A DNA stretch of 64,000 nucleotides from Gemmatimonadota bacterium (GCA_016209985.1 JACQVB010000022.1:1664-65663), one strand, 5' to 3'; shown: positions 10,428-62,427, counted from the stretch's first letter. Translations and numbers: made by a program. The notes: generated by a model not told the origin, from the letters alone.

Positions 10428-10540
10428 GAGGTCTTGGGGCTTGGGTGTTAAGTCTTGGGTGTCAGGAACATGTTTGCCATGCGGCCCGCGACCATAGTGC
10501 CAAGCGGCGAAGACCTAAGACCCAAGACCCAAGAACCCCT
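10428..10540. repeat. Unit-repeat hairpin (TCTTGGG-type units and complement)
   Basis: Left arm gaggtcttggggcttgggtgttaagtcttgggtg pairs with right arm agacctaagacccaagacccaagaacccct. It starts immediately after the RR stop codon. Confidence 0.7.
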
Positions 10541-10661
10541 CATCCTCATTTCTGTAGGTCTCCCACCGACACATTTTCACCCACACTGAGGACGCGGCAC
10601 GGCTGCCACAGCCTATGTCCCGGCCTCGTTCCCGCCCGCTAGGTTTGCCCCCAGCCTGAAG

Positions 10662-11171
10662 ATGCTCGACCAATCTCTTTTCCCGGGATCCAGCGCCGTG
10701 GTTGCCAACCGCCCACAGCCCCACCACCCGACCGATGGGACCGCGGAGTCCGCCGAATCCTGGGCCGAGCTGCTGGTGGTCGTCGTGGAGGATTCCACCA
10801 TCGTTCGCGAGCGGCTCATTCGCCTGCTGACCGCGGTCGACAACGTCAAAGTGGTCGCCGAGGCCGCCACCGCGGAGGTGGCGATTCAGAAGATCGCCGA
10901 GCTTCAACCGCACCTGGTCACCCTCGATCTGCGGCTGGAGGGGGGGACCGGCTTCGACGTTCTGCGCGCGCTGGAACGGATGGATCGCAAGCCGTGCGTC
11001 GCGGTGCTCACCAACTACGGTGATGCGCAGTCCCGGCGCGAGTGTCTGGCCCTGGGGGCCGACTTCTTCTTCGACAAGTCGCTCGAGCTGGGGGATTTGA
11101 AGACTGTGCTCACTCACCTCGCCGCATCTGCTCGCGCCGGCGTCCGCTGGCAGGATCGCAAGACCGACTAG
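10662..11171 (+). CDS. Single-domain response regulator (receiver only)
   Basis: LLVVVVEDS...LVTLDLRLEGGTGFDVL...FFFDKS receiver pattern. Start uncertain. Confidence 0.75.
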   Translation: MLDQSLFPGSSAVVANRPQPHHPTDGTAESAESWAELLVVVVEDSTIVRERLIRLLTAVDNVKVVAEAATAEVAIQKIAELQPHLVTLDLRLEGGTGFDVLRALERMDRKPCVAVLTNYGDAQSRRECLALGADFFFDKSLELGDLKTVLTHLAASARAGVRWQDRKTD

Positions 11172-11262
11172 TGCCGATCGGGAAGGCCCCTGTCCTTCCT
11201 CGCTGATCGGTGCATAATTCCCGCATCCCGGTCCAATCGATTCCCGTTCGCTTTGGACGCAC

Positions 11263-14200
11263 GTGACCAGACGACCGCGCCGCCCCAAGCGGAAACCCGC
11301 ACGCCATGCTTCGGTCGGTCCCGATCTCCAGCGCACGCTGGCGAGCATCGGGGCCGGGCCTATCACGCTGATCGACGCCACCGGCATGATCCTCTACACC
11401 AGCCCGGCCGTTCTGCGGCTCCTCGGCTACGAGCCCGCCGAACGTGAAGGGCAATCGGTGATGGAGATCATCCATCCGGATGACCGGGACCGGGCGCAGC
11501 ATGCTTTCGCGGATCTGGCCGGCCAGCCGGGCATGGGGATGACGGCCGACGTTCGCTGCCGCCGGAAAGACGGCACCTACCGGACGCTCGAGGTGGTCGC
11601 GCTCAATCGCCTGGCCGACCCCGAAATCCAGGCGATCGTGACTACCTACCGCGACGTCACCGAGCGGCGCCAGCTCGAGCAGCGGGTCAGGGCGTCCGAA
11701 GAGCGCTATCGGCTGCTGTTCAATGAAAACCCGATGCCGGGATGGGTGGTGGACCGGCAGACGCTTGCGTTCCTCGCGGTCAACCAGGCTGCCATCGAGA
11801 AATACGGCTACACGGAAGAGGAATTCCTCTCCATGACCGTAGCCGACATCCGGCCGTCCGCCGAGGTGATTCGCCCCGATGCCAACGTCGCTCCCGTCTC
11901 TCCTACCAGCGCGCCGCCCGGATTCAATCTCGTTCCCGGCGTTCGACGTCATCGAACGAAGGACGGCCAGTGGATCGACGTGGAGGTCTTCCAGCGCCCC
12001 ATCTCGTTCGACGACCACCCTGCATTACTGGTGCTGGTCAACGACATCACCGAGAGGCGGCGCGCCCAGGCAACGCTCGCCGAGCGCGAGATGCTGCTGG
12101 AAGCGATCGTGGAGGCCTCGCCGGAATGTCTCAAGGTGGTCGCCTCGGACGGAACGGTGTTGCAGATGAATCGGGCCGGTCTCGCGATGCTCGACGCCAC
12201 CTGCATGGAGGAATTGCCCCGGTCCATCATCGAGTTGGTGGCGCCGGAGCACCGGCCGGGCTTCCAGGCCATGGCCGCGCGGGTATTCGCGGGTCAGTCC
12301 GCGCAGCTCGAGTTCGAGGTCATCGGTCTCAAGGGCTCGCGCCGCTGGGTGGAAAGCCACGCCATGCGGCTGGAGTATCCCGGCCGGGGCGACCCGGTGA
12401 TGGTGGCGGTTACCCGCGACATCACCAAACGCAAACAGGCGGAAGACGCCTTGCGGGAGAGCGAGAAGCTCTACCGGACCCTGTTCGAAAGCGCGCCGCT
12501 GGGGCTGGGGATCGCCGACACCGACGGCACCCTGCTCGCCTTCAACGATGCGATCCGCGCCCCGGGCGGGTACTCGGAAGCCGATATCCGCGCCATCGGG
12601 AACGTCGCGCGTCTCTATGCCGATTCTGCCGAACGCGATCGCCTGCTGGCCAAGTCGCGCGCCGAAGGCCGGTTGCACCGTGAGCCGGTGCAGTTTCTCC
12701 GCCAGGACGGCAGCAAGTACGATGCCCTGATGAGCCTCGAGCCGGTTCAAATCGGCGGCCGCCACGGTTGGTTGGCCGTGGTCGAAGACGTGAGCCAGCA
12801 GAAGCGGGCCGAGGCGGCGGAGCTGCAGGCGGAAGAACGCTATCTGACGTTCTTCGCCCATTCCGATGAAGCATTCTGGCGGATCGAGTTTCGCGAGCCG
12901 TGTCCCATCACGTTGCCGGAAGAGGAGCAGATCGAGCACTTCTACCGGCATGCGTACCTGGCTGAAGGCAACGATGCCATGGCCCGGATGTACGGCTATG
13001 CCTCTTCCGCGGAGATGGTCGGGAGAGGTTTCGAAGAGGTGCTGCGGCGGGATGACCTTGCCAGCCTTGCCGCGTTGCGGGACTTGATCCGTTCCGGCTA
13101 CCAGCAGACCAACGTGGAAGTTCGCGAGCGCGACCGGATGGGCGCGGCCAAGATCTTTTCCCGGAGTCTGGTGGGGATCGTCCAGAAAAACGCACTGCAG
13201 CGAATCTGGGGAACGCAGCAGGACATCACCGAACACCGGCGAATGGAGGACCAGCTCCGCCAGGCACAGAAGATGGAAGCGATCGGGCAACTAGCCGGCG
13301 GAGTGGCGCACGACTTCAACAACCTGCTCACCGCCATGCTCGGGTCGGCCGAAATGCTGCTGGCCGGCCTGGGCCCCGCCGATCCGCGGCTGGAAGACGC
13401 CAGCGACATCAAGCAGGCGGCGTCGCGCGCGGCCGCGCTGACCCGACAGCTCCTCGCCTTCGGCCGGCGGCAAGTGCTGAAGCCGCAGGTGCTCGACTTG
13501 AACCGGGTAGTATCCGACATGCAGCGGCTGCTGCGGCGCTTGATCCCGGAAGACATCGAGCTGGTGACCCGCCGCGCCGAGGATCTGTGGTTGGTGTTGA
13601 TGGATCGGAGCCAGCTAGAGCAGGTCCTGGTGAACCTGGTCGTGAACGCCCGCGATGCCATGCCGGACGGTGGCGTGATCATGATCGAGACCGGGAACCT
13701 GGACCTCGATGCGTCCTTCGCCACGCGAAATCCCGGTGCCGCCGCCGGTCCCCATGTCAGCCTCACGGTCCGCGACACGGGCCACGGAATGGATGCGGAG
13801 ACGCGAGCGCACATCTTCGAGCCGTTCTTCACCACCAAGGAAGTCGGCAAAGGCACCGGGCTGGGCCTCGCGACGGTCTATGGAATCGTGAAGCAGAGCG
13901 GGGGCTACATCACGGTACAGAGCGAGCTCCGGGTGGGGACTTCGTTTCAGATTTACCTTCCGCGCTGCCCCGAAGGCGTGATACCGGCCGAGCCCGCCGC
14001 TACCGGCGTGGCGGAAGCGGAAACGACCGAGCCGGTCGCGGACCTCCGGGGAGGCACCGAAACGATTCTCATCGCCGAAGACGAAGAGCGGATTCGCATC
14101 TCGGCCAAGCGGATCCTGGAGTACTACGGATATCGGGTACTGCTCGTCCCCGACGGGCAGGCCGCGCTGGAGCTCCTGGACCAGACCCCGGTCGACCTGG

Positions 14201-14421
14201 TGGTGTCCGACGTGGTCATGCCTCGCATGAACGGTCCCCAGCTCTACCAGGCCGTCCGCGAGCGAGGCAGTGCGGTCAGGTTTCTCTTCACCAGCGGCTA
14301 CGTCGGACGCGAGGGCCGCAGCGACGTGAAGATCGATCCCACCGTGCCGTTTCTGCCGAAGCCCTGGACGGTGAACGAGCTGGTGACGACGGTGAGAAGG
14401 ATACTGGACGTGAAGACATAA
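11263..14421 (+). CDS. Multi-PAS hybrid histidine kinase with C-terminal receiver
   Basis: Repeated PAS blocks (DITERR/DITKRK boundaries), H-box VAHDFNNLL, HATPase ([17 protein letters not shown]) and a receiver ([18 protein letters not shown]). Confidence 0.85.
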
Positions 14422-14427
14422 GCGGAA

Positions 14428-14486
14428 CGTGGTGCGTGGTGCGTGGACTTGCATCGTCCGCCCCCACGCACCACTCACCACTCACC
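14428..14486. repeat. Unit-repeat hairpin (GTGCGTG/GTGAGTG units) between convergent genes
   Basis: acgtggtgcgtggtgcgtgg ... ccacgcaccactcaccactcacc. It lies directly after the kinase stop and before the thioesterase stop. Confidence 0.7.
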
Positions 14487-14488
14487 TT

Positions 14489-14950
14489 CTATACCACCGC
14501 CTCTTTTGCCTCGCCTCCCCGGTCCGTCCCGGCGACGGCCACGATTCCGTCGCAACGCGCGCAGATCACCCCCCGCTCGTCCACCAGCTCCGCGGTCGAG
14601 AAGACCAGGTTGGTGCCGGCGCGAACCGCGCGGGCGAGGGTCTCGAAACGGTCGCCCAGGACCGGGCGGAGGAACTGAATCGATAGCTGTGCGACCCCAG
14701 CCCGCCGGCCACGGGTGTGCACGTATCCGGAGAGGCCGATCACCAGGTCGAACACTCCCGCGATGGTGGCACCGTTCACCGCCTCGGTTCCCAGGCCGCC
14801 CCGGTGATGGGGGCGGATGGGATCGACCACGCAGCGCACCACTCCCGCCGTGCGGAGATCCACCTTCACCCCCATGTGATGCATGCCGGGGTGATCGTTC
14901 CATCGGTGCTCGAAGTCGGCGATTTCGGCGGGGGAGAGCCACTCGGCCAT
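14489..14950 (-). CDS. PaaI/hotdog-fold thioesterase family protein
   Basis: ~150 aa. HMGVKV..., GGLGTEAVNGATIAGVFDL and a C-terminal ...CARCDG pattern are typical of PaaI-like thioesterases. ATG at 14950 is preferred over TTG at 14977. Confidence 0.7.
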   Translation of the reverse strand: MAEWLSPAEIADFEHRWNDHPGMHHMGVKVDLRTAGVVRCVVDPIRPHHRGGLGTEAVNGATIAGVFDLVIGLSGYVHTRGRRAGVAQLSIQFLRPVLGDRFETLARAVRAGTNLVFSTAELVDERGVICARCDGIVAVAGTDRGGEAKEAVV

Positions 14951-14979
14951 CAGAGCTCCATTGTTCGATGAGAGCAATG

Positions 14980-15088
14980 AAAAGCGTGAAGAGTGAAGCG
15001 TGCAGAGTGAAGAGTAAAACGGCGCCGCCCCGATTGCTAACGGGTCTGCCTTACCCTTCCCTCTTCACTCTCAACTCTTCACGCTTTT
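14980..15088. repeat. Unit-repeat hairpin (GTGAAGA units) in a divergent intergenic region
   Basis: aaaagcgtgaagagtgaagcgtgcagagtgaagagta ... tacccttccctcttcactctcaactcttcacgctttt. The outer 15 nt are perfectly complementary. Confidence 0.7.
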
Positions 15089-15104: not shown

Positions 15105-16367
15105 ATGGCTCCAAAGGTCATCGTTATTGGTGCCGGCTTCGGCGGCCTGCAGTGCGCCAAGAAGCTCGCCCAGAAGCCGGTCGATGTGCTGGTGATCGAC
15201 CGGAACAACTACCATCTGTTTACCCCGCTGCTGTATCAGGTCGCGAGCTCCCTGCTGGACCCGAGCGACATCGCCTACCCCGTCCGCGCCGCGTTTCGTC
15301 GCGCGCGCAACGTGCGTTTCCGGGTGGGCGAAGTGACCGGCATCGACTTCGCCCACCAAGAGGTGCGGACGGCCGACGGAGATGCTCTTCCTTACGACTA
15401 TCTGGTGATCGCGGCGGGCAGCACCGACAATTTTTTCGGCCTTACGTCCGTCGAGAATGTCGCGCTCGGCCTCAAGGATCTGCCGCACGCCGTCACCCTC
15501 AGGACCCACGTGATCCGCGCGTTTGAAACCGCCGCCCGGGAGATCGATCCCGCGGCCCGGGCAGCATGGCTGACGTTCGTGGTCGTCGGTGCGGGACCGA
15601 CCGGCGTGGAATACGCCGGTGCGCTGAGCGAGCTGATTCATCGGGTGCTGGCGCGCGACTACCCCGAGCTCGATCTCTCCGCGGTGCGCATCATCCTGAT
15701 CGAAGCCCAGCATCAGGTGCTTCCCGCCTTCCCGCCCCACCTCGGCCTGGATGCGCGGCGCCGGCTCGAGAAGATGGGGGTGGACGTCCGCCTCGGAGTT
15801 CGGGTACTGGATGCCACGGAGCGCGGCGTGCGCCTCTCCAGCGGAGAAGAGGTCGGGTGCCGGACGCTGGTGTGGGCCGCCGGAGTCAAGCCGGAAACCG
15901 TGGCACCGGGGGGCGTCCTGCCCCGGACGCGCTCGGGCCGGATGGCGGTGGACCAGACACTCCGCGTTCCCGGCCATCCCAACGTGTTCGCGATCGGTGA
16001 TATCGCGGGCGTGGTCCAGGATGGGCGCGAGCTCGCGATGATGTCGCCCCAGGCGATGCAAGAGGGGCGCTACGTCGCGCGTGCCATCGTGAAGCTCACG
16101 CGAGGCAAGCCCGTAGCGGCATTCCGGTATCGCGACAAGGGCATCATGGCCACCATCGGCCGCCATGCCGCGGTGGCGCAGGTGGGGAAGCTCTCCTTCA
16201 GGGGCCCGATCGGGTGGCTGGTATGGCTGGTGCTTCACCTCTACTACATCACGGGATTCCGCAACCGCTTGGTCGTCTTTTGGAGCTGGATGTGGAATTA
16301 CATCTTCTACGACCGGCCGATACGGCTGCTGACTGGAAGCACGGATCACACGGATACACGCGAGTGA
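15105..16367 (+). CDS. ndh: Type II NADH dehydrogenase (NDH-2)
   Basis: VIVIGAGFGGL and VVVGAGPTGVE dinucleotide folds, and AIGDIA, over ~420 aa. Confidence 0.85.
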   Translation: MAPKVIVIGAGFGGLQCAKKLAQKPVDVLVIDRNNYHLFTPLLYQVASSLLDPSDIAYPVRAAFRRARNVRFRVGEVTGIDFAHQEVRTADGDALPYDYLVIAAGSTDNFFGLTSVENVALGLKDLPHAVTLRTHVIRAFETAAREIDPAARAAWLTFVVVGAGPTGVEYAGALSELIHRVLARDYPELDLSAVRIILIEAQHQVLPAFPPHLGLDARRRLEKMGVDVRLGVRVLDATERGVRLSSGEEVGCRTLVWAAGVKPETVAPGGVLPRTRSGRMAVDQTLRVPGHPNVFAIGDIAGVVQDGRELAMMSPQAMQEGRYVARAIVKLTRGKPVAAFRYRDKGIMATIGRHAAVAQVGKLSFRGPIGWLVWLVLHLYYITGFRNRLVVFWSWMWNYIFYDRPIRLLTGSTDHTDTRE

Positions 16368-19685: not shown

Positions 19686-19756
19686 GCCTCACCCCTGTCC
19701 CCTCTCCCCTTCGCTCCGCTCAGGGCGGCGCCTTACGGGAGAGGGGAACCGAGGCC
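19686..19756. repeat. Imperfect hairpin (CCCCTCTCCC / GGGAGAGGGG)
   Basis: ggcctcacccctgtcccctctcccc ... gggagaggggaaccgaggcc, immediately upstream of the tgt remnant. Confidence 0.55.
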
Positions 19757-19904
19757 CATGGCTGGTTGTGCGGGCTGTGGCTGGAATCTTCAAGTGTCAA
19801 GTAATCGACATAGTGTCGCCGTAACTATAGAACCGGTACCATTGAAGACCCACCCCAGATTGGCGCGTGTTCACTGCCGCCGGCATCGTCGTAGAAAGCA
19901 CCCT

Positions 19905-28726: not shown

Positions 28727-30646
28727 TTGACGGGTCCGACGACACGCCGTTACCCTCAGCGCCCCGTGACTCTCCGACCATCCCAAGCCAATAGCACGCC
28801 GCGGCGCCTCGGCGTGCTGACCCTGGCTGCCATTGGCGTCGTCTATGGTGACATCGGCACTAGTCCGCTTTACGCCATTCGCGAGTGCTTCTTCGGGCCG
28901 CACGCCGTAGCGCCGACTCCGCAAAATGTGCTCGGCGTCCTTTCGCTCATCGTCTGGTCACTGATCATCGTGATCTCGGTCAAGTACCTGGTGTTTGTCA
29001 TGCGGGCGGACAACCGGGGAGAAGGCGGCATCCTCGCCCTGATGGCGCTGGTCGGTCCCGAGCGCCGGATACGCGGCCGCCGGATGCTGGTTACCCTCGG
29101 CCTCTTTGGCGCGGCGCTGCTCTATGGCGACGGAATGCTTACTCCCACCATCTCGGTGCTCAGCGCGGTCGAAGGTCTCAACGTCGCGACCCCGGTGTTT
29201 TCCCGCTACGTCATCCCCATCACGATCGGTATTCTGGTGGCCCTGTTTTCGATCCAGCACCGGGGCACCGGAAAGGTGGGCGCGCTGTTCGGGCCGGTCA
29301 TGGTACTGTGGTTCTTCACCATCGGCATCCTCGGCCTGAAGGAGATTTTTCGCGCTCCCGGGGTCCTGGCTGCCATCGCACCGTGGCACGCCGTGGATTT
29401 CTTCCTGCAGAACCGATGGCACGGCTACGTGGTGCTCGGCGCGGTTTTTCTGGTCGTCACCGGCGGTGAAGCGCTCTATGCCGACATGGGCCACTTCGGG
29501 CCCCGGCCGATTCGCCGCGCCTGGTTTGGTTTGGCACTTCCCGCGCTGCTCCTCAATTACTTCGGGCAGGGCGGGCTGCTCATGAATGCTCCCGATGCCG
29601 CGGTCAACCCGTTCTATCACCTGGCCCCCGACTGGATGCTGTATCCGCTGGTCATTCTTGCGACCAGCGCGGCGGTGATCGCGTCGCAGGCGGTGATATC
29701 CGGGGCGTTCTCGCTCACCAGGCAGGCGGTCCAGCTCGGGTACAGCCCGCGAGTCGAGGTCGACCACACCTCTTCGGAAGAGATCGGCCAGATCTACATC
29801 CCGGGGGTGAACTGGGGACTCATGCTCTCCACCATCGGGCTGGTGCTCGGATTCAAGACGTCCAGCGCCCTGGCCGGCGCTTACGGAGTCGCCGTCGCGA
29901 CCACGATGGTCATTACGACCCTCCTGGCCTATGTGGTGGCGCGGGAGCTGTGGGGTTGGAAATCGTGGATGGCGGCGAGCGTGCTGGGCGGCTTTCTGAT
30001 AGTCGACCTTGCCTTTTTCGGCGCGAACATCCTCAAGGTGTGGCAAGGCGGCTGGTTCCCGTTGGTCGTGGCCCTGGCGATCTACACGCTGATGACCACC
30101 TGGAAAACCGGCCGTCGCATCCTGGCCTCGCGGCTACGGGCCGGCCTGGCGCTCGAGCAATTCCTGGCGGGAGTGGGCCCCAACACGCTTCGGGTGCCCG
30201 GCGTTGCGGTCTTCATGACCCAGGCGCCCGCCGGCACGCCGGTCACCCTGCTCCACAATCTCAAGCACAACAAGGTGCTGCATGAGACCGTCGTGCTGCT
30301 CACCATTCTGGGCGAGGAAGTCCCGCACGTTGCCACTACCGCACGCATGAAGTTCGAGGATCTCGGCAAGGGCTTCTACCGCATTATCGGGCGCTACGGT
30401 TTCATGGAAGACCCGAATGTCCCCGAGCTGCTGGGGCTGGCTCGCCAGTTCGGGCTCGATTGCAAGCCGCTGGAGACCACTTATTTTCTCGGCCGGGAAA
30501 CGCTGATCCCCACCAAGAAGCCGGGCATGGCCATCTGGCGGGAACACATCTTCGCGTTCATGGCCCGGAATGCGCATCGGGCGACGGCGTATTTCCGGAT
30601 CCCCCCGAATCGGGTGGTGGAGCTGGGAGCGCAGGTGGAGCTCTGA
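28727..30646 (+). CDS. kup: KUP-family potassium uptake transporter
   Basis: VYGDIGTSPLY near the N-terminus, ~12 hydrophobic segments and a C-terminal cytoplasmic domain. TTG start uncertain. Confidence 0.9.
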   Translation: MTGPTTRRYPQRPVTLRPSQANSTPRRLGVLTLAAIGVVYGDIGTSPLYAIRECFFGPHAVAPTPQNVLGVLSLIVWSLIIVISVKYLVFVMRADNRGEGGILALMALVGPERRIRGRRMLVTLGLFGAALLYGDGMLTPTISVLSAVEGLNVATPVFSRYVIPITIGILVALFSIQHRGTGKVGALFGPVMVLWFFTIGILGLKEIFRAPGVLAAIAPWHAVDFFLQNRWHGYVVLGAVFLVVTGGEALYADMGHFGPRPIRRAWFGLALPALLLNYFGQGGLLMNAPDAAVNPFYHLAPDWMLYPLVILATSAAVIASQAVISGAFSLTRQAVQLGYSPRVEVDHTSSEEIGQIYIPGVNWGLMLSTIGLVLGFKTSSALAGAYGVAVATTMVITTLLAYVVARELWGWKSWMAASVLGGFLIVDLAFFGANILKVWQGGWFPLVVALAIYTLMTTWKTGRRILASRLRAGLALEQFLAGVGPNTLRVPGVAVFMTQAPAGTPVTLLHNLKHNKVLHETVVLLTILGEEVPHVATTARMKFEDLGKGFYRIIGRYGFMEDPNVPELLGLARQFGLDCKPLETTYFLGRETLIPTKKPGMAIWREHIFAFMARNAHRATAYFRIPPNRVVELGAQVEL

Positions 30647-30725
30647 GGGTCCAAACGGATGTAAGAGTTAGAAGGGATGTAAGGGTTTTCGAACCCTTCT
30701 GACCCTTACAACCCTTCCAACCCTC
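30645..30725. repeat. Unit-repeat hairpin (GTAAGGG/GAAGGG units) between convergent genes
   Basis: gagggtccaaacggatgtaagagttagaagggatgtaagggtt-ttc-gaacccttctgacccttacaacccttccaaccctc. It spans exactly stop to stop. Confidence 0.7.
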
Positions 30726-32064: not shown

Positions 32065-32080
32065 GCTACGCTCCCAGTCT

Positions 32081-32132
32081 AGTAAGAAGTGAGCAGTAAG
32101 AAGTTTGTCCTTCTCACTTCTCACTTCTTACT
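32081..32132. repeat. Unit-repeat hairpin (GTAAGAA/GTGAGAA units) between the DUF1800 and DUF1501 genes
   Basis: agtaagaagtgagcagtaagaag-N6-cttctcacttctcacttcttact. 21 of 23 positions are complementary. Confidence 0.75.
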
Positions 32133-33825: not shown

Positions 33826-33897
33826 CCCGTTCTGCCGTTCTGCCGTTCTGCCGTCATGCCATTATGCCGTTGTGCCGTTGTGCCGTTGTGCCGTTGA
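33826..33897. repeat. Tandem octamer array GCCGTYRT (~9 units), no inverted partner
   Basis: gccgttct x3, gccgtcat, gccattat, gccgttgt x3, gccgttga. It lies in a divergent intergenic region. Confidence 0.8.
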
Positions 33898-36460: not shown

Positions 36461-36522
36461 GGAGTTCGGGGTTCGGAGTTCGGGCTGAGGGCGCGAACCC
36501 CCAACCCCGAAATCCTCACTCC
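36461..36522. repeat. Unit-repeat hairpin (GTTCGGG/GTTCGGA units)
   Basis: ggagttcggggttcggagttcggg ... cgaacccccaaccccgaaatcctcactcc. Confidence 0.6.
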
Positions 36523-36586: not shown

Positions 36587-38686
36587 ATGCGGGTGTACCC
36601 AGGACAAGCGATTCGGAATGTGGCCGTACTCGGCCACGGCGCGAGCGGAAAAACCACCCTGGTAGATGCTCTCGCGTTCGTGGCCGGCTCGAGCAAGCGA
36701 CATGGTTCCGTAAAAGACGGAACCGCCCTCACAGACTACACCCCGGACGAGATCGAACGACAATACTCCATCAATCTGGCGCTCGCCCACGCGGAATGGA
36801 TGGACGCCAAGATCAACCTCATCGATACGCCCGGCTATCTCGACTTTGCCGGTGAGGCGCTGGCCGGCGTCTACGCCGCCGACGCCGCCTTGATCGTGGT
36901 GAGTGCCACCGGCGGCGTGGAAGTCGGTACCGAGCAGGTCTTCGAGTTTGCCGAACAGCGTGGCATCCCCCGGATGTTCTTCGTGTCGCTGATGGACAAG
37001 GAGCACGCCGATTTCGACCGCGTGTTCAACGACATCGCGGAGCATCTGACGCCAAAGGTGATCCCCATCGAGATCCCGGTCGGCGATGGCCCGGACTTCC
37101 ACGGGATCGTCAACCTGTTCTCCAAGAAAGCGCATCTCTACAAGAAGGGGACCAAGGCGGGCGAGTACGAGGAAGTCGATGTCCCGCCAGAATACGTCGA
37201 GCGGTTCGAGCAGTATTCCCAGAAGCTGCTCGAGGCCATCGCGACGACCGACGACGCTCTCCTGGAGCGCTATCTCAACGGCGAGGAGATCAGCCGCGAT
37301 GAGACGCTGGCCGCCATGAAGGCCGGCATGGCCAAAGGCGAGCTGTGCCCGCTGCTCTGCGGATCCGCCGAGCTGACCTACGGGATGCAGGCCCTGCTCT
37401 CCAAACTGGTGGAGCTGGTCCCGTCCCCCACGGAGCGCCCGCCGGTCGAGGGGAAGACCTGGGGTGAGGCCCAGCCCATCACGCTGACCGCCCAGGACGA
37501 CGGTCCCTTCGTGGCGCACGTATTCAAGACCGTGTCCGAACCGCACGTGGGAGACGTCACGTTTTTCCGGATCGTTTCCGGCTCGATCAACAACGGCACG
37601 GATGTATTCAACGCGCCTCGTGACTCGGTCGAGAAGCTCAACCACCTTTCGGTGTCCCAAGGCAAGGACCGGACCGAAGCCCCGATGCTGCATGCCGGGG
37701 ACATCGGATGTGTCGCCAAACTGCGGAATACCCACACCAACGACACGCTCTCGACCAAGGCGGTGCCGGTCGTCCTGCCCAGGATCCCGTTCCAGGAACC
37801 GGTGATCACGTTGTCGATCGAGGTGAAGCAACGCGGGGAAGAGGACAAGCTCTCCACCGGTCTCCAGAAGCTGCATGAGGAAGACCCTACCTTCCATCAC
37901 GAGTACAACGGCGAGCTGGGTCAGACACTGATCCGGGGCCGCGGCGAGCGGCACCTGGAGATTCTGGTCGGCCGGCTGGCGAGGAAGTTCGGGGTCCATG
38001 CTACGCTCGGGAAACCCAAGGTTGCGTATCGCGAGACGCTCAGGGGGAAAGCCGAGGGCCAAGGGAAGCACAAGAAACAGAGCGGCGGGCGGGGCCAATT
38101 CGGCGATTGCTGGATCCGGCTCGCCCCGCTCCCCCGCGGGTCAGGTTTCGTGTTTGACGATCAAATCGTGGGTGGGGTGATTCCCCGCCAATACATCCCG
38201 GCCGTGGAACGAGGCATTGTGGAAGCCGCGGCGCGAGGCTCGATCGCCGGCTTCCCCATGGTCGACTTCAAGGCCGAGCTGTTCGACGGCTCCTACCACG
38301 ACGTGGATTCAAACGAAATGTCGTTCAAGATGGCGGGGATTCTGGCGTTCCGGAACGTGGCGCCCAACGCCCGGCCGGTGCTCCTGGAGCCGATCGAAGA
38401 AGTGGAAGCGTGGACCCCGGAGGAATACCTCGGCGCCGTCATGGGAGACCTATCCGCTCGCCGCGGGCAGATCCTGGGCAGCGAGCGCGACGGCCGCCTT
38501 ACCAAGGTCAAAGCGCTGGTCCCTGAGGCGGAGCTGGACCGGTACGCCACCCAACTCCACTCACTCACCCACGGCCGGGGAACCTACCGGCAGAAATTCC
38601 ACGCCTACCAGGAGACACCGCCGGAAGTGACCGCCAAGGTGGTGGAGGCGCACAAGAAGGAGCTGGAGGCGGCGGAGAAGAAGTAG
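36587..38686 (+). CDS. Elongation factor G paralogue (EF-G-like GTPase)
   Basis: G-domain AVLGHGASGKTT, DTPGYLDF and SLMDKE, plus EF-G domains II-V. It is not in an rpsL-rpsG-fusA-tuf context. Confidence 0.85.
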   Translation: MRVYPGQAIRNVAVLGHGASGKTTLVDALAFVAGSSKRHGSVKDGTALTDYTPDEIERQYSINLALAHAEWMDAKINLIDTPGYLDFAGEALAGVYAADAALIVVSATGGVEVGTEQVFEFAEQRGIPRMFFVSLMDKEHADFDRVFNDIAEHLTPKVIPIEIPVGDGPDFHGIVNLFSKKAHLYKKGTKAGEYEEVDVPPEYVERFEQYSQKLLEAIATTDDALLERYLNGEEISRDETLAAMKAGMAKGELCPLLCGSAELTYGMQALLSKLVELVPSPTERPPVEGKTWGEAQPITLTAQDDGPFVAHVFKTVSEPHVGDVTFFRIVSGSINNGTDVFNAPRDSVEKLNHLSVSQGKDRTEAPMLHAGDIGCVAKLRNTHTNDTLSTKAVPVVLPRIPFQEPVITLSIEVKQRGEEDKLSTGLQKLHEEDPTFHHEYNGELGQTLIRGRGERHLEILVGRLARKFGVHATLGKPKVAYRETLRGKAEGQGKHKKQSGGRGQFGDCWIRLAPLPRGSGFVFDDQIVGGVIPRQYIPAVERGIVEAAARGSIAGFPMVDFKAELFDGSYHDVDSNEMSFKMAGILAFRNVAPNARPVLLEPIEEVEAWTPEEYLGAVMGDLSARRGQILGSERDGRLTKVKALVPEAELDRYATQLHSLTHGRGTYRQKFHAYQETPPEVTAKVVEAHKKELEAAEKK

Positions 38687-38776
38687 GCGGGTCGGCGGGT
38701 CGCGTTCCCGATTGAATGCATGCAAACGGCGCGGAGAATGAACCCCGCGCCGTTTCTGCCACCCGCCGACCCGCCT
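38683..38776. repeat. Nested hairpin: outer GGCGGGTC-unit arms enclosing a GC hairpin (likely bidirectional terminator, 38723-38753)
   Basis: taggcgggtcggcgggt ... acccgccgacccgccta. The inner hairpin is aaacggcgcgg-N9-ccgcgccgttt. It lies between convergent genes. Confidence 0.7.
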
Positions 38777-45638: not shown

Positions 45639-45668
45639 GAGTGGCGCAGTGCGCAGAATGCAGAGGCA
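45639..45668. repeat. Weak tandem 7-8 nt units (GTGCGCA-like)
   Basis: gtggcgca gtgcgca gaatgca gaggca. Confidence 0.3.
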
Positions 45669-46755: not shown

Positions 46756-47256
46756 TCAGCCTCCCGCCTTAGGAACCTTTCCCTCCAAACGTTTCTTTGC
46801 TTCTGACCGCACCGCTTGGGTGAGCGAATCTCCGGGGCTTCCGGGAGACGCCACCAACTCGACCTCGCGATCGGGCACCGAGGGATCGATAGTGCTCCGA
46901 TAGACGGTTTCGACCACCAGCTGCGTTTCGCTCGGGGTGACGAGGTCGGTCCAGACACGCATCCTCACCAATCGCTCCGGGCTGGTATTGCTCCGGTGCG
47001 ATCGATGGGTGACCAGGTCGAACCACCGGGTCTCCAGGTACCCTTCGGCGGGACTGGCGGCACGCATCTGGATGCCGAGTGCCGTTACCGCATCCCGCGC
47101 GGCTTCCAGGACTGCGGCCGGGTCACCGACCACGGTGTCGACCGACGCCAGGGGGAACGGGCGGATATTGGGGCGGGTGGTGATCGACGTGCAGGAAAGG
47201 GCCAGCAAGAAAAGGGGAAGAGGGAAGAGGGAAGAGGGAAGAGTAAGGCGCGCCAA
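46756..47256 (-). CDS. Hypothetical exported protein (start uncertain; TTG 47256 proposed)
   Basis: (M)ARLTLPSSLFPLPLFLLALSC looks like a signal peptide. That segment is encoded by one arm of the 47.2-kb hairpin. Confidence 0.4.
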   Translation of the reverse strand: MARLTLPSSLFPLPLFLLALSCTSITTRPNIRPFPLASVDTVVGDPAAVLEAARDAVTALGIQMRAASPAEGYLETRWFDLVTHRSHRSNTSPERLVRMRVWTDLVTPSETQLVVETVYRSTIDPSVPDREVELVASPGSPGDSLTQAVRSEAKKRLEGKVPKAGG

Positions 47257-47332
47257 ACGGGGCTCAATGCGGACACGCCGAGCGTCGGGTTCGGCTGGCA
47301 GTACTCTTCCCTCTTCCCTCTTCCCTCTTCCC
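47215..47332. repeat. Unit-repeat hairpin with perfect 31-nt arms (GGGAAGA units)
   Basis: gggaagagggaagagggaagagggaagagta (47215-47245) is the exact reverse complement of 47302-47332. Confidence 0.9.
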
Positions 47333-47339
47333 TGTTCTT

Positions 47340-47828: not shown

Positions 47829-47842
47829 GGGTGGGGTCTCAT

Positions 47843-47874
47843 GGCGTCATGCCGTTGTGCCGTCATGCCGTCGT
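47843..47874. repeat. Tandem octamers GCCGTYRT (4 units), same unit family as 33826-33897
   Basis: ggcgtcat gccgttgt gccgtcat gccgtcgt, abutting the hbd stop codon. Confidence 0.6.
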
Positions 47875-48761: not shown

Positions 48762-48788
48762 TGGTGTCGTTTCTCCTGTGAGGATCTT

Positions 48789-48866
48789 CGTTCGGCGGTT
48801 CGGCGGGTCGGCGGGTCGCACTTCCGCGGCAAACGACCCGCCGACCCGCCCATCCGCCGACCCGCC
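48789..48866. repeat. Unit-repeat hairpin (GGCGGGTC units), 17-bp perfect stem
   Basis: ggcgggtcggcgggtcg (48802-48818) pairs with cgacccgccgacccgcc (48834-48850). Additional degenerate units lie on both sides. Confidence 0.85.
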
Positions 48867-49716: not shown

Positions 49717-50573
49717 TTTTTCGCCAGCAGCTCGGCCGGCGCGGCGGCGGGAATGGGAGCGGTCACCGGTGCGGTGCGGGGAACGCCGATCCCGGTGGAC
49801 GCGGGAAGCTGCTTGTCGCCTCCGCTTCTCGACTTCATCAAGTCGATGAACGGCGACAGCAGATCGAGCGGCACCGGCAGGACCAGAGTCGATTTGTTCT
49901 CGGCGGCCACCTCGACCACGGTCTGCAGGTAGCGCAGCGTCAACGCTGCCGGCTCCATGCTGATCACGTGGGCGGCCTCGGCCAGCTTTCCGGAAGCCAG
50001 GAACTCGCCCTCCGCCGCGATCACTTTGGCGCGGCGCTCGCGTTCGGCCTCGGCTTGGCGCGCCATCGCCCGCTTCATCTCGGGCGGCAGGTCGACGTCC
50101 TTGACCTCGACCGCCGAAACCTCGATGCCCCAGGCCTCGGTGCGCTGATCCACGATCTTCTTCAGGATGGCGTTGATCTTCTCCCGATCGGAGAGGACTT
50201 CGTCGAGCTGCACCTCGCCCAGCACGCTCCGCAGTGTGGTCTGGGCCAGCTGGCTCGTGGCGTACAGATAGTTCTCGATTTCGATCACCGCCAGGTCGGG
50301 GTTCTTCACCTTCATGTAGAGAACCGCGTTGACCTTGATCGAGACGTTGTCGCGCGTGATCACGTCCTGCGGCGGGATGTCCATGGCGATGGTCCGCAGC
50401 GACACTCGCATCATGTGGGAAAAGAACAGCGGCACGAACACCAGGCCCGGTCCCTTGGTGCCCCAGTACTTGCCGAGGAAGAACGTGACGCCGCGCTCGT
50501 ACTGCCGCAGCACCCGCAGGCTGCCGAACACGTAGACCAGCACGCCGGCGACGGCGAAAAAGAGCGGACTCAT
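49713..50573 (-). CDS. SPFH/band-7 (stomatin-like) protein
   Basis: N-terminal TM, then [10 protein letters not shown]..., [20 protein letters not shown] and a coiled [17 protein letters not shown]. Confidence 0.85.
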
Positions 50574-51778
50574 GAGTAGGCCTCCACGATGACGGCGGCG
50601 CCCTGCCCACCACCGATACACGCCGAGCCCAGACCATAGCGCTGCTTCCGTTGCCGCAGGGCGTGCAACAGATGAGCCGTGATCCGAGTGCCGCTGGCGG
50701 CCAGCGGATGACCGATGGCAATGGCGCCGCCGTGCACGTTGGTCCGATCGGGGTCCAGGGCCAGCTCTTTCTCGACCGCGAGATACTGCGGCGCGAAGGC
50801 CTCGTTGACCTCGACCAGATCCATCTGCTCCAGCTTCATGCCGGCCCGGGCGAGCGCCTTGCGCGCCGCCGGTGCCGGCCCGATCCCCATGTGCCGGGGC
50901 TCCACGCCCGCTACCGCCCACGCTACCAGGCGACCCATCGGCTTGAGGCTCTGGGCCTTCGCGAATTCCTCGCTCGCGATCACGGTCGCGGCGGCGCCGT
51001 CGCAAATTCCCGACGCGTTGCCCGCGGTGACCAGACCGTCCTTCTTGAAATAAGGCTTGAGGGAGAGCAGGACTTCGAGCGTGGTATTCGGCCGCATATG
51101 CTCGTCGGCGTGCCAGTCGATGTTCTGCCGCGTCTTCGGATCTTTGACCGGTACCGCGATCACCTCATCCTGGAAGACGCAGTCGTCCCAGGCTTTCTTC
51201 GCCCGCTGCTGGCTCCGCAGAGCTACCTGATCCACTCCCTCCCGCGTGAGCTGGTATTGCTCGGCGAGACTCTCGGCCGTTTCCGCCATCGAAAGTCCGC
51301 ACTGCGGGTCCTTGAGCGCCTCCCACAGCAGGTCCTCCAGTGGCTGGCCGGTGCCTAACCGGATCCCCCAGCGCGCGCCGCGCACCACGTGCGGCGCCTG
51401 GCTCATGGATTCGGCGCCACCGGCGAGCACGACGTTGGACTCGCCCAGCAGGATCTGCTGCGCGCCCTGGATGATGGATTCGAACCCCGAGCCGCAGAGG
51501 CGGTTGACCGTGACGGCGGGAACTTCGATCGGAAGGCCCGCACGAAGTCCTACGTGGCGCGCGAGATAGATGGCGTCGGCGGAGGTCTGCAGCGCGTTGC
51601 CGAACACGACGTGATCCACCTGCGCCGGCTCGACCCCCGAACGGGCCAATGCCTGCTTCGCTGCGATCGCGCCCAAGTCGGTTGCGGAGAACTCTTTGAG
51701 GGTACCGCCGAAGGTGCCGAAACCGGTACGGACGCCGGACAGAAACACGACGTCCAATTGTTTGCCTTGAGTCTTCAT
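50570..51778 (-). CDS. Acetyl-CoA acetyltransferase (thiolase II)
   Basis: [10 protein letters not shown] active-site Cys, [26 protein letters not shown]. Confidence 0.9.
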
Positions 51779-53562: not shown

Positions 53563-53590
53563 GTCGAGTGCGGAGTGCGGCGTGCGGAAT
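53557..53590. repeat. Tandem GTGCGGA-type units
   Basis: gagtgcggagtgcggcgtgcggaatgcggaacc, overlapping the start codon region of the zinc-ribbon gene. Confidence 0.5.
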
Positions 53591-53755
53591 GCGGAACCAG
53601 CAACGTGCGCGATGGGCAGGCGGAGCGAACGTTAAGTCGCCGCTCAAGATGCACCCGGGAGCTATCACGCAATCCGAGCGGCGACCGGAGATGAGCGAAG
53701 CCTGCCCGCTGCTCGTACCGACCGACCTGATCAGCATCCCGCGCGCGACGATGTG

Positions 53756-59563: not shown

Positions 59564-59881
59564 TCAGCGTTTCTTCTTGCCCTTCTTCGACTTCTTGGCA
59601 GCCTTCTTCGCTTTCTTCTTCGCTTTCTTCGCCGCCTTCTTCGCCTTCTTGACGCTCTTCTTCGGCGCCGCTTTCTTCGCCTTCTTCGCCGCTTTTCTCG
59701 GCTTCGGCTTCGCGGCCGGCTTGGCCGCCGGGGCGGCTGGTGCCGCACTCGGCGAGGGCGCGGGAGAGGGTTGCGACCACAGCGGCGTTTCCGCAGGAGC
59801 CGGTTTCACGGGTGGCGTCAGCGGCATTGGATCCCACATTCCGGGACCGCCCAACCCGCTGATTTCGGACGGGAGACTCAT
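59564..59881 (-). CDS. Lys/Ala-repeat basic protein (histone H1/Hc1/AlgP-tail-like)
   Basis: A Pro-rich N-terminal half, then AAKPAAKPKPRKAAKKAKKAAPKKSVKKAKKAAKKAKKKAKKAAKKSKKGKKKR. Confidence 0.65.
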   Translation of the reverse strand: MSLPSEISGLGGPGMWDPMPLTPPVKPAPAETPLWSQPSPAPSPSAAPAAPAAKPAAKPKPRKAAKKAKKAAPKKSVKKAKKAAKKAKKKAKKAAKKSKKGKKKR

Positions 59882-60070
59882 GTGATCTACCTCCAGGTGA
59901 GTGTGGCGAGTGCGGCTATAGAGTCGTGGGTGCGACGAGGCTACGCAAGAGGAACTGACGGGATTCTGCTTGACACCGCCCGTCAGATCGCCTTAGGTTC
60001 GATCGCGCTGCAATCGCATATCTCCTGACAGGTTTTGCATTTACGCGTTTTCTGTATGGGGGCCCGGGGC

Positions 60071-62350
60071 ATGTCTCGGACGGTACCCACGATTGCCATC
60101 TTGGTGACGGTGTTGGTTGCCGGACTGCCCTCGCTCGCCCCGGCGCAGGGAACCGGAGTGGCACAGGTGCAGGTCGCTCCGCCCAACGTTTCCCTGAATA
60201 TCGGCCAGCATGCCAACGTCTTCGCCACGGCCTTTGACGGGAAGAACAACGTGGTGCCGATTCAGAAAATCACCTGGAGCTCTTCCAACCCGGCGGTGCT
60301 CAAGGTCGAGGCCGACAGCACCTCTCCGGAGATCGCAATCCTGGTCGGCCTCGCCGCTGGTGCCGCTACCGTAGAGGCGCGGGTAGGAACCCGGCGGGGA
60401 ACCGCCACGGTGCAAGTCGCCGGAGCCGGCCCGGTCTCGGTGGCAGCCGCTGTTCCATCCGGCCCGCCGGCTCCCACCGGGTTCGGTGCCGCCAGTCTGC
60501 TCAAGCTCGAGCCCAGCTCGCTCTTCCTCTTGCCGGCGGAAGCATTCCGGGTCTCTCCGGTGTTCCTGAAAGACGATGGGACTCCCGCGGCCCCGGCCAG
60601 GCTTTCGTGGAAATCGCTGGTCCCCACCGTGGCCACCGTGGATGCCGAAGGAACGGTCGTCGCGATTGCTCCGGGACAGGGGCTGATCGAAGCGACCGCT
60701 GGCCCACTGGCGGGCCGGCTCCCGGTCGCGGTGTCGCTGAGCAAGATCGCGCTGAGCCGCCGCCTCCAGACGATGTCTCCGGGCTCGGTGGACACCTTCG
60801 TGGTCACCGTGCCGGAGCAGAATAATCGTCCGCTGCCTCCCACCAACATTCAGTGGCGCTCCAGCGATGAAAATGTCGTCCGGGTTTCACCGTTCGGTGT
60901 AGTGAGCGCGGTAGCCGGTGGGCGGGCCGAAGTGGTCGCCTCCGGATTCCTTCAGGAACTCCGGGTGCCGGTGAGCGTGCATAAGGCCGTCGAATTCCTG
61001 CGGCTTTCTCCCTCCGCTCGAGATACGATACGGCTCCCGCTGGGCGGGTCCGTAAGGTTCGTGGCCGAGGCACAGGCCGCGGACCAAAGCCCGGTGCCCG
61101 AGGCTCCCATTTCGTGGAAGCTGCTCGATACGTCGGTGGTGTCGTTCGATTCCTCCAGCGGCCTGATGCTGCCCAAGCGGATCGGGACCACGCGCCTGCG
61201 GATCAGCGTGGCCGGCGGCGGCCTCGATACCGCCTGGACCGTGAGCGTGATCGCCGGCGGCGTGAGGTTCCCGCTGCACCGCGCGGGGCTCGCCACCGGA
61301 GACCGGCTCAAGGTGACCGCCTCGCTCACCGACGACGCCGGCCGGCCCATCGCCGCGGCCACCGGCCTTCGCTGGACGTCCTCGGCGGCGCAGGTGGCCC
61401 AGGTGGATCTCGATGGCAACGTCGCCGGTGCCGCGCCCGGGCGTTCCACGATCGTCGCCCTCTCACCCTGGGGTCGCGGTGATACCTTGACCGTGATCGT
61501 GCAGCGCGAGCTGCTGGTGACGGCCACCAGGGGAGGTAATCCGGATATCTACGCGCTGGATCGTCGCTCACCCGATCCCGCCGGCTGGACCCGCGTTACC
61601 ACCGAGCCGTCCAACGAAAGCGGGGCGTCCTTCGCGGCGGGTGGGATGGAGCTCGTGTTCATGTCGAGCAGGGACGGCAATCAGGAGATCTATGTCGCGG
61701 ATGCGGATGGGACCAATCCGCGCCGGCTGACCAGTACCCCGGCGCAGGAAGACTCGCCCGACTGGACCCCGGACGGCAAGCAGATCGTGTATGCCTCGAA
61801 CGCGACCGGCAGCTATCAGATCTGGATCATGAATGCGGACGGAACCGAGCAGCGACGCCTGACGGACGGCCCGGCGTTCAATTTCCAACCGGCCGTTTCG
61901 CCGGACGGCAAGACCATCGCCTTCGCGTCGACTCGCGACGGGAACTACGACATCTACCTGATGAATATCGACGGGACCAGCCAGCGGAATTACACCCACA
62001 GCCCGGGCAGGGAGACCATTCCGCAGTGGTTCCCCAACGGCCAGTTGGGTTATTTGACGGAGCAGCGGACCGGCACCGGCCGCAACGCCAGCATCGCCAG
62101 TGTGGTGATGAAGGCCGACCCCGCCGGCGGTGCGCCCGCCACGGCGCTGACGCCGGCGAATCTCGTCGTGACCGATTTCGCGGTGTCGCGCGACGGTGAA
62201 TCACTGGCGCTGGTCGTCAGCAGTAGTGGTCCCGGCGGCGCAATGTCGAGCAAGCTCTATCTGACGTCTGCAGCAACGGGTTCCGTCCCAGTGGAGGTGC
62301 CGGTACCGGCTGCCGGCGAGCAGGTGTTCTCTCCGGCTTTCCGGAAGTGA
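60071..62350 (+). CDS. Exported protein with Big_2 Ig-like repeats and a C-terminal TolB-like (PD40) beta-propeller
   Basis: Signal MSRTVPTIAILVTVLVAGLPSLAPAQG. Repeated ..W.SS.P.V..V...G.V.A...G.. modules. C-terminal SRDGNQEIYVADADGTNPRRLT and SPDGKTIAFASTRDGNYDIYLMNIDGT. Confidence 0.8.
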   Translation: MSRTVPTIAILVTVLVAGLPSLAPAQGTGVAQVQVAPPNVSLNIGQHANVFATAFDGKNNVVPIQKITWSSSNPAVLKVEADSTSPEIAILVGLAAGAATVEARVGTRRGTATVQVAGAGPVSVAAAVPSGPPAPTGFGAASLLKLEPSSLFLLPAEAFRVSPVFLKDDGTPAAPARLSWKSLVPTVATVDAEGTVVAIAPGQGLIEATAGPLAGRLPVAVSLSKIALSRRLQTMSPGSVDTFVVTVPEQNNRPLPPTNIQWRSSDENVVRVSPFGVVSAVAGGRAEVVASGFLQELRVPVSVHKAVEFLRLSPSARDTIRLPLGGSVRFVAEAQAADQSPVPEAPISWKLLDTSVVSFDSSSGLMLPKRIGTTRLRISVAGGGLDTAWTVSVIAGGVRFPLHRAGLATGDRLKVTASLTDDAGRPIAAATGLRWTSSAAQVAQVDLDGNVAGAAPGRSTIVALSPWGRGDTLTVIVQRELLVTATRGGNPDIYALDRRSPDPAGWTRVTTEPSNESGASFAAGGMELVFMSSRDGNQEIYVADADGTNPRRLTSTPAQEDSPDWTPDGKQIVYASNATGSYQIWIMNADGTEQRRLTDGPAFNFQPAVSPDGKTIAFASTRDGNYDIYLMNIDGTSQRNYTHSPGRETIPQWFPNGQLGYLTEQRTGTGRNASIASVVMKADPAGGAPATALTPANLVVTDFAVSRDGESLALVVSSSGPGGAMSSKLYLTSAATGSVPVEVPVPAAGEQVFSPAFRK

Positions 62351-62427
62351 CGGTCGGTCGGTCGGTCGGTCGGACGGTCGTTTGGCCTCGCAGCCGACCG
62401 TGTGACCGTCTGGCCGTCTGACCGTCA
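62348..62427. repeat. Unit-repeat hairpin (GGTC/GACGGTC units)
   Basis: tgacggtcggtcggtcggtcggtcggacggtcg ... cagccgaccgtgtgaccgtctggccgtctgaccgtca. Confidence 0.65.

Follow-up and report, generated by a model that had tools for sequence, protein, structure and literature searches.

Tandem-armed hairpins behind stop codons in a Gemmatimonadales genome, and their resemblance to the cassettes of PF05635 genes

The subject of this work is a set of intergenic hairpins in a 64,000-nt stretch of DNA from a Gemmatimonadota bacterium (JACQVB010000022.1:1664-65663 of assembly GCA_016209985.1), referred to here as the window. Each arm of these hairpins is a run of short tandem units, the second arm being the reverse complement of the first, and they are therefore called tandem-armed hairpins (TAHs). 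The genome that holds the window, numbered G000 in our comparison set, belongs to the Gemmatimonadales and consists of 4.64 Mb in 289 contigs, with a GC content of 65%. The TAHs are palindromic microsatellite elements with a family structure. They are anchored at stop codons, at a frequency proportional to the number of gene 3' ends per junction, with fast turnover between related genomes. Their arms are alike by unit, within a locus and across a family, and not by mirrored base pairs, and their architecture is that of the cassettes of the intervening-sequence (IVS) type that enclose genes of family PF05635 (23S-rRNA-IVS, or Avd-like).

To our knowledge, heptamers are the one class of simple repeat that is over-represented in many bacterial genomes, and we know of no established cause. 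The only detailed study of heptamers known to us, on Xanthomonas and Nostoc, arrived at no function and inclined towards G-quadruplexes. With about 70 units in a single genome, G000 offers a natural experiment on repeats of this kind.

Hairpins and arrays of the window

The arrays of the window were called with Tandem Repeats Finder (TRF), after which the sequence was read directly. The original prediction had described runs of tandem 7-8 nt units followed by runs of the reverse-complement units, and this is borne out at all ten of the loci listed for it, where the gap from arm to arm is 6-60 nt by direct reading (Table 1). An eleventh site, at 19686, had been described as an imperfect hairpin rather than a clear run of units, and this is indeed what it is, with the C-rich arm first and a unit from a different family. 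Folds were compared with 200 dinucleotide shuffles per locus. All eleven hairpins fold much better than their shuffles, at energies of -33 to -87 kcal/mol and z scores of -3.7 to -11.1, and at no locus was any of the 200 shuffles as good.

Of the sites that had been proposed as tandem arrays lacking a second arm, those at 33827-33896, 47839-47872 and 53566-53595 are clear, whereas the array at 16340 is marginal, with 2.5 copies, and the one at 45639 was not called by TRF. The mixed placement that had been claimed, between convergent, co-directional and divergent genes, is evident from Table 1. It had also been stated that the unit differs at almost every locus. This is true inside the window, in which two units occur at two sites each (38683 with 48789, and 33826 with 47843), but it is a sampling effect, because in the genome as a whole the units group into families with as many as 26 loci.

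Gene positions come from our own gene caller, which is crude and which gave 3,597 genes for the genome. The open frame 48868-50721(-), next to the hairpin at 48789, was not picked by the caller, which called 49713-50573(-) in another frame instead. Scans of the window with Rfam and for tRNA genes found nothing, and no rRNA. The spacer that holds the hairpin at 14980-15088 is only about 130 nt long, so that at least one promoter or 5' untranslated region must cross the hairpin.

Table 1. Hairpins and arrays of the window, counted from its first nucleotide, followed by the PF05635 cassettes on other contigs of G000 (contig:position). Energies are in kcal/mol, and z scores are relative to dinucleotide shuffles. 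G002 is a genome of the same genus.
Feature	Position	Strand	Unit and structure	Neighbours and placement	Fold
TAH	10428..10541		TCTTGGG (degenerate); loop ~42 nt	2 nt past stop of 9794-10426(+); co-directional	-52.4, z -3.9
TAH	14428..14486		GGTGCGT; 26-locus family in genome	stop to stop, convergent 11263-14421(+) / 14489-14977(-); missing at orthologous junction of G002	z -5.1
TAH	14980..15088		GTGAAGA	nearly fills divergent spacer, 14489-14977(-) / 15105-16367(+)	z -6.4
Marginal array	16340..16360	+	CACGGATA x2.5; weak, may be chance		
Imperfect hairpin	19686..19756		CCCCTCTCCC...GGGAGAGGGG; C-rich arm first; AGAGGGG family; different sub-type		z -4.5
TAH	30645..30725		GTAAGGG(TT)	stop to stop, convergent 28727-30646(+) / 30724-32124(-)	z -4.6
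TAH	32081..32132		GTGAGAA/GTAAGAA	first unit includes stop TAA of 32128-33822(-); operon-like, co-directional	z -8.4
Tandem-only array	33827..33896	+	8-mer CCGTTGTG/CCGTCATG, 8.8 copies; unit family of 47839-47872	divergent spacer	
TAH	36461..36522		GTTCGGG	co-directional; upstream of 36587-38686(+)	z -3.7
TAH	38683..38776		8-mer GGCGGGTC; 19-locus family	stop to stop, convergent	-68.3, z -9.6
Inner terminator-like hairpin	38724..38755		AAACGGCGCGG...CCGCGCCGTTT	nested in loop of 38683 TAH	
TAH	47215..47337		GGGAAGA; 22-locus family; 4 perfect units per arm; 60-nt loop	co-directional; end 2 nt from stop of 47340-47828(-); absent in G002	-87.1, z -11.1
Tandem-only array	47839..47872	-	8-mer CGGCATGA (- strand)	immediately past stop of 47874-48821(-)	
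TAH	48789..48866		8-mer GGCGGGTC	co-directional; end 1 nt from stop at 48868 of open frame 48868-50721(-)	z -5.6
Tandem-only array	53566..53595	+	7-mer GAGTGCG, 4.3 copies; unit family of arms of PF05635 remnant C99		
TAH	62348..62427		GACGGTC/GGTC	co-directional; first unit contains stop TGA of 60035-62350(+)	z -7.2
PF05635 cassette	C154:5673-6199		same 9-mer family as 30645 TAH		
PF05635 cassette	C33:3552-4206				
PF05635 cassette	C134:18980-19910		right arm at 19897		
PF05635 cassette	C180:5259-5760		GTGAAGA, as in 14980 TAH		
PF05635 cassette	C7:10385-10929		unit of 32081 TAH		
PF05635 cassette (remnant)	C99:~250-808		unit family of 53566 array		

Unit families and their position in the genome

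About 350 TAH loci were found in G000, and the observation is real and strongly non-random. A strict scan, for inverted array pairs no more than 200 nt apart, gave 268 inverted pairs against 6 direct ones. A more sensitive scan found 854 arrays of period 7, with an inverted partner for 524 and a direct partner for 19, and at period 8 there were 133 arrays with an inverted partner and 6 with a direct one. Seven is by far the commonest TRF period in the genome that is not a multiple of three. The median fold is -55 kcal/mol with a z score of -6.9, compared with -0.12 for length-matched intergenic controls. An array of period 7 or 8 lies within 100 nt of the end at 51 of the 578 contig ends, where about 20 would be expected. 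Since the assembly breaks at these arrays, all hairpin counts for this genome are lower bounds.

There are about 70 canonical units. The largest families are GGTGCGT (26 loci), AGGTGTC (23), GGGAAGA (22), the 8-mer GGCGGGTC (19), AGCCATC (18) and GTGAGAA (15). Within each of the 22 largest families the polarity of the arms is 100% fixed, with the G-rich arm first in 19 of them and the C-rich arm first in three (AGCCATC, CAGCCGT and CCCCTCT); overall, 235 of the 268 strict pairs are G-first. The earlier statement that the sequence is not conserved between loci is therefore wrong at this scale, as the units form families of fixed polarity and recur in other genera. Ordinary hairpins that are not built of repeats have no polarity bias (74 against 91), and for this reason a derivation of the polarity from ordinary terminator hairpins was rejected.

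An arm has about four units whether the period is 7, 8, 9 or 10, and with or without a G-tract: the median is 4.1 copies per arm, with an interquartile range (IQR) of 3.3-4.6. The quantity that is held constant in the arms is thus copy number and not length. The copy numbers of the two arms of a hairpin are barely correlated (r 0.18). Both observations support slippage, which had been suggested as the source of the arms. Loop lengths are bimodal, at 10-20 and 40-60 nt, and some of the long loops contain a canonical terminator composed of an A-tract, a stem and a T-tract, as at 38724-38755.

The position of the hairpins is closely tied to stop codons. A hairpin starts at a median of 2 nt past the upstream stop codon (IQR -2 to 7), and between convergent genes it lies 1 and 2 nt from the two stops. 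This is not a matter of lack of room: where a spacer leaves 150 nt or more free, 68% of hairpins still start within 10 nt of the stop, where 2.5% would be expected at random. Hairpins are carried by 2.1% of divergent, 5.2% of co-directional and 9.6% of convergent junctions, in proportion to the gene 3' ends present, and per kb of spacer there are 0.49 between convergent and 0.08 between divergent genes. Solo arrays of the same families beside stop codons obey the same strand rule (77 against 12). The rule seen in this genome is one set of arrays for each gene 3' end, with its start at the stop codon.

It is worth adding that 22 hairpin pairs lie well inside called genes (for example C40:12803-12871, C63:37178-37292, C75:40125-40253 and C76:847-1107). 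Fourteen of the 22 have 8-nt units, in most cases GGCGGGTC; three such units preserve the reading frame.

PF05635 genes, relatives and RNase III

In G000 each of the six PF05635 genes is bracketed by two arms that are inverted tandem arrays, and in the six cassettes the arm beside the flanking host gene abuts the stop codon of that gene. The units of the cassettes are all different, these being the 9-mer GGTTCTAAG, a 19-mer, the 10-mer AAGGGTCGGT, GTGAAGA, GTGAGAA and GAGTGCG. Four of the six are also the units of loci in the window (30645, 14980, 32081 and 53566). As a baseline, inverted tandem arms flank just 2 of 599 other small genes of the genome. The same arrangement is found in relatives: of the 20 PF05635 loci in 20 related genomes, 18 are flanked by significant inverted arms, about 16 of them clear 7-8-mer arrays. 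In one relative a PF05635 cassette has arms of AGCCATC, and its polarity is C-first, as is that of AGCCATC in G000. When widely spaced inverted arrays were scanned for other cargo genes, the output was noisy, and no second family emerged consistently.

The PF05635 proteins match TIGR02436, and their best match in the PDB is XCC0516 of Xanthomonas campestris (2GSC). We take PF05635/TIGR02436 to be a small four-helix bundle encoded by the open reading frame (ORF) of 23S-rRNA intervening sequences, and a homologue of Avd, a protein of diversity-generating retroelements (DGRs). The tie between heptamer repeats and this gene family is also visible in a published Xanthomonas table, where repeat no. 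15, with four copies of GGGAATC, overlaps with the beginning of XCC0516 at a distance of 6 nt from XCC0517 (PMC4692102, supplement file 2). In Coxiella the 23S IVS, which has the same ORF, carries heptameric repeats in its stem, and RNase III cuts there (PMC4990558). In the literature we found no paper linking heptamer arrays, PF05635 genes and IVS stems.

The window gave no match to PF05635; the loops of its hairpins measure 6-60 nt, and the six genes of G000 lie on other contigs. What the window loci share with the PF05635 cassettes is only their arms, architecture and position. The presence of arms of the same kind around every PF05635 gene of this genome hints at the origin of such repeats.

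Alignment of orthologous junctions had been proposed as a check for turnover, and a comparison of such junctions showed that in relatives the hairpin is absent or is built of other units. The junction behind 32128-33822(-) carries a TAH in six of nine genomes of the family, in each case starting at the stop codon, and the units are 7-mers in G000 and G001, 8-mers in G012 and G005, and 10-mers in G013 and G011. In G002 the two genes of this junction, presumably a DUF1800/DUF1501-type pair, overlap (ATGA). For this comparison window positions 32060-32150 were set beside loci L002, L004, L005, L007 and L009; the upstream gene ends in ...PEFQKQ*. The hairpins of 14428, 47215 and 62348 are missing in the congener G002. 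At the last of these, the orthologous junctions of G002, G011 and G012 all lack a hairpin, and G011 has a tandem-only array there. At the junction of 38683 G002 does have a hairpin, but its arms are both built of another 8-mer, GAGCGGAT, and its inner terminator is a different one. Among 80 metagenomic orthologues of the gene at 36587-38686, the stop codon is followed by the next gene, by a canonical terminator or by a TAH, and these TAHs use at least seven other units.

The density of arrays per 100 kb varies accordingly, being 14 in G000 and 12 in G019, 3-5 in G002, G011 and G012, and 0 in samples of G021, G023 and G025. Identical units recur in a patchy way: GGTGCGT is found in G000, G001, G011 and G013, and AGGTGTC in G000, G017, G028 and others, and both are absent from G002. 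This congener (SHZT01000010.1, Baikal-deep-G155, a metagenome-assembled genome; locus L065) is of the same genus and is listed at 2.6 Mb, compared with 4.6 Mb for G000. Most of the window hairpins are absent from it, and the load of elements may scale with genome streamlining.

RNase III was searched for with three models (PF14622, TIGR02191 and PF00636) and was found in 0 of 31 Gemmatimonadales genomes, while control genomes were positive. In G000 a tblastn search and a search for the signature motif were also negative. At phylum level RNase III is present in 15 of 151 genomes, 14 of the 15 being in other classes. The pattern suggests that rnc was lost across the clade, and the apparent loss is of separate interest for RNA biology. 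The relatives that have RNase III carry PF05635 less often (5 of 15), in some cases with in-frame stops, and are nearly devoid of gene-less hairpins (1 array in 365 kb), a comparison that is confounded by lower GC and by phylogenetic distance. The in-frame stops are found in several PF05635 matches of G039 and G042 (L188, L193, L195, L197, L198 and L199), which suggests that these copies are decaying; their flanks still show 7-8-mer arms.

Known repeats and possible origins

The original prediction held that no described class of element has these properties. This is contradicted by the convergent pairs of heptameric simple sequence repeats (SSRs) that are known beside stop codons in Xanthomonas and Nostoc (PMC4692102), and also by the heptamers that the Coxiella 23S IVS carries in its stem (PMC4990558). 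In Xanthomonas campestris and Xanthomonas axonopodis the unit is GGGAATC, and in Nostoc PCC 7120 it is GGGGAYT (Rehm et al. 2015, PMC4692102). There are 70-75 convergent pairs of GGGAATC arrays per Xanthomonas genome. The arrays prefer four units, a preference linked to the G-quadruplex (G4), which was shown in vitro for the Xanthomonas unit; the G-rich array lies no more than 50 bp from a stop codon or overlaps it, on the coding strand; and the arrays are depleted between divergent ORFs and vary between close species, with no function found (PMC4692102).

The elements described here are the same phenomenon in a multi-family form, and not a new class. The likeness covers the tandem 7-nt units, the two convergent arrays able to form a stem-loop, the number of units (about four), the location at the stop codon with a scarcity between divergent ORFs, the rarity inside genes, and the variation of length and sequence between close relatives. 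The differences are that there are about 70 units of 7-10 nt here instead of one, that 79% of the paired period-7 arrays have neither GGG nor CCC and so do not resemble the G4-capable GGGNATC-type unit, and that the C-rich arm comes first in three families. The density is also about five times higher, roughly 7 loci per 100 kb compared with 1.4 pairs in Xanthomonas, and the lineage, the Gemmatimonadales, was not covered in that study (PMC4692102). What is added is thus a rich, multi-unit variant of a published and unexplained class, with a testable tie to the IVS/Avd-like family.

Like the 23S IVS of Coxiella burnetii, Leptospira and Brucella, with its heptamer-bearing inverted-repeat stem around a small four-helix-bundle gene (PMC4990558), the PF05635 cassettes place such a gene between inverted heptamer arrays, and the elements have a sporadic distribution resembling that of horizontal transfer. 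Unlike the 23S IVS, they lie after the stops of protein genes and not in rRNA helices 9, 25 or 45, the copies in the window have no ORF, and the excising enzyme, RNase III, was not found in the 31 genomes of this clade.

Other known systems are less similar. The repetitive extragenic palindromes (REPs) and bacterial interspersed mosaic elements (BIMEs) of enterobacteria stabilise upstream mRNA and act as weak terminators. They too are extragenic palindromes near stop codons, inside operons and at their ends; however, a REP is an imperfect palindrome of about 35 nt that is conserved and owes its spread to REP-associated tyrosine transposases (RAYTs), whereas the arms here are microsatellites, and there is no conserved non-tandem palindromic unit of 20-40 nt as in REPs and REPINs, only arrays of 7-10 nt units with unrelated loops. 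The short tandemly repeated repetitive (STRR) heptanucleotides of heterocystous cyanobacteria are described as direct arrays, hairpin pairing and anchoring at stops not being part of the description. They resemble the present elements in that several heptamers occur in tandem in the intergenic DNA of one genome (cited in PMC4692102). Intrinsic terminators have a GC-rich stem and a U-tract, a pattern not seen here; MITEs (miniature transposable elements with inverted repeats) differ from these elements, which have no target-site duplication (TSD) in their flanks and no homology of loops within families; and in contrast to CRISPR the units are head-to-tail, with no spacers. The claim that the elements are not CRISPR, REP/BIME or MITE is therefore upheld, since spacers, a TSD and a conserved core are all lacking and the elements show no link to RAYT.

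Because the same architecture encloses a PF05635 gene elsewhere in this genome and in this order, we read the window elements as empty, gene-less hairpin cassettes of the IVS type, acting as REP-like RNA hairpins. We consider this on balance probable, though far from secure, the function being one that we infer. The length of the arrays would change by replication slippage, and a unit-specific process, either ectopic conversion or a trans-acting factor, would keep the arrays uniform across loci. When transcribed, the arrays would place a stem of 25-35 bp directly behind the stop codon, and this stem would work in the manner of REP/BIME, as a barrier to 3' exonucleases, a pause or a partial stop, and not as an obligatory terminator. 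Without RNase III the stems would escape the cleavage that IVS stems undergo in other organisms, and this may explain the tolerance of so large a number of them. If the link to PF05635 is true, rRNA intervening sequences and intergenic heptamer palindromes are one kind of element.

Several observations weigh against this reading. The loops of 138 gene-less elements do not resemble what lies inside the six cassettes that carry a gene, which means that the gene-less copies are not recent deletion derivatives; their origin by deletion from the assembled PF05635 cassettes was rejected for this reason. The number of PF05635 genes does not track the density of hairpins: G021 and G025 have 5 and 8 such genes and no hairpin in samples of 100 kb, whereas G019 has 2 genes and many hairpins. 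In G000 itself, six assembled genes stand against about 70 units. Similarity of the proteins and similarity of the arms are not significantly related (Mantel r 0.07, p 0.24), and co-variation of unit and protein was rejected on this test. Within families the loops are unrelated, being no more alike than shuffled ones except in three recent duplicates, a result that also led us to reject MITE-like copying and pasting of whole elements. The variant units in the arms are not mirror-ordered (p 0.25), which together with the independent lengths of the arms implies that the arms agree at the level of the unit and not of the base pair; duplication of a whole arm in inverted form, or maintenance at the base-pair level, was rejected on these grounds. 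At tandem junctions the sense and antisense folds are equal (59 against 64, p 0.66), with no G-U strand asymmetry, and selection at the RNA level on one strand was rejected accordingly. Finally, any effect on transcripts is again one that we infer, and gene positions rest on crude calls of our own making (85% coding).

One may go further and suppose that the PF05635 proteins are unit-specific partners of the arrays, which would generate, renew or propagate convergent arrays downstream of stop codons and, in other bacteria, in rRNA helices. This is a speculative extension that we regard as unlikely. Each paralogue, as a pentameric ring, would recognise a unit of its own, at about one unit per subunit, and long RNA stems would have ceased to be costly once the class Gemmatimonadetes lost RNase III, leaving gene-less arrays free to multiply. 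Such a partnership would explain why arms are uniform within families that have unrelated loops, why polarity is a property of the family, and why there are some 4-5 copies at any unit length, and it would also explain why heptamers are the over-represented class of SSR in many bacteria.

Alternatively, the elements might be a pure by-product of mutation, in which slippage acts in place on a seed present at the site (a terminator stem's base, for example), with no spreading, no partner and no function. The copy number of about four at any unit length is what an equilibrium of slippage would give, the arms vary independently and the order of their variants is unmirrored, the loops are local, unrelated and sometimes native terminators, and the elements are often absent in the streamlined congener. 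However, an exact unit is found at up to 26 loci and in several genera and yet is absent from G002, of the same genus. Polarity is fixed without exception in every family, including the three C-first ones, whereas ordinary hairpins are unbiased; all six PF05635 genes are enclosed; and one junction is occupied in six of nine genomes by arrays of different units. We therefore think it rather improbable that slippage in place is the whole explanation.

The elements could instead be dedicated transcription terminators lacking a U-tract, favoured by selection because this genome has few canonical intrinsic terminators. Canonical terminators do look scarce, with about 35 perfect-stem hairpins for some 3,600 genes (counted as intergenic, with a stem of at least 8 bp, a loop of 3-8 and A or T tracts). 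The stems of the TAHs are very stable, they are enriched where two gene 3' ends meet, as the densities between convergent and divergent genes show, and relatives hold canonical terminators, with stem and T-tract, at the same position. Against this, the U-tract is absent: TTTT occurs in 4% of the 12-nt tails after hairpins, and the only signal in the flanks is a mild enrichment of A upstream and of T downstream, over 5 nt. After subtraction of the hairpin the spacer is 40 nt or less at 52% of co-directional junctions with a hairpin and at 51.5% genome-wide, so that operon-internal junctions are neither avoided nor preferred, which argues against obligatory terminators; in G002 the gene pair of the 32081 junction abuts or overlaps. 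Many elements are missing in congeners, where the genes simply abut, a canonical terminator inside some of the loops would be redundant, and the 14980 element lies between two divergent starts. The original prediction, that most elements lack a U-tract and that they are not simply intrinsic terminators, agrees with these results, and dedicated terminators seem to us decidedly improbable.

Two further mechanisms are very hard to credit. Spread of the REP/REPIN kind by a RAYT (Y1 transposase), or copying by a reverse transcriptase, would suit the REP-like extragenic niche near stops, the families of tens of loci and the enrichment at contig ends (51 against 20 expected), but PF01797 is absent from the hairpin-rich G019 and G011 and partial in G000, PF00078 occurs in only 5 of 31 genomes, and the elements lack a TSD and a conserved core and have unrelated loops. 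A RAYT as the driver was rejected because PF01797 does not track the hairpins. Telomerase-like addition had been considered because of the G-first polarity and the independent arm lengths, and it was rejected, together with reverse transcription, because PF00078 is absent from hairpin-rich genomes.

The other is that the elements are G4s or i-motifs, the four units supplying four G-tracts. The units GGGAAGA, GGCGGGTC, GTAAGGG and TCTTGGG do give G3N4-5 repeats in about four copies, and the Xanthomonas unit forms a G4 in vitro (PMC4692102). As a common cause this is largely refuted by the census of units in G000, most of which have no G-tract, and the G4 idea is therefore not general. The large families GGTGCGT, AGGTGTC, AGCCATC and AAGTGAG are unable to form a G4, and 415 of the 524 paired period-7 arrays are without GGG or CCC, with a copy number that is the same or higher (4.3 against 3.4).

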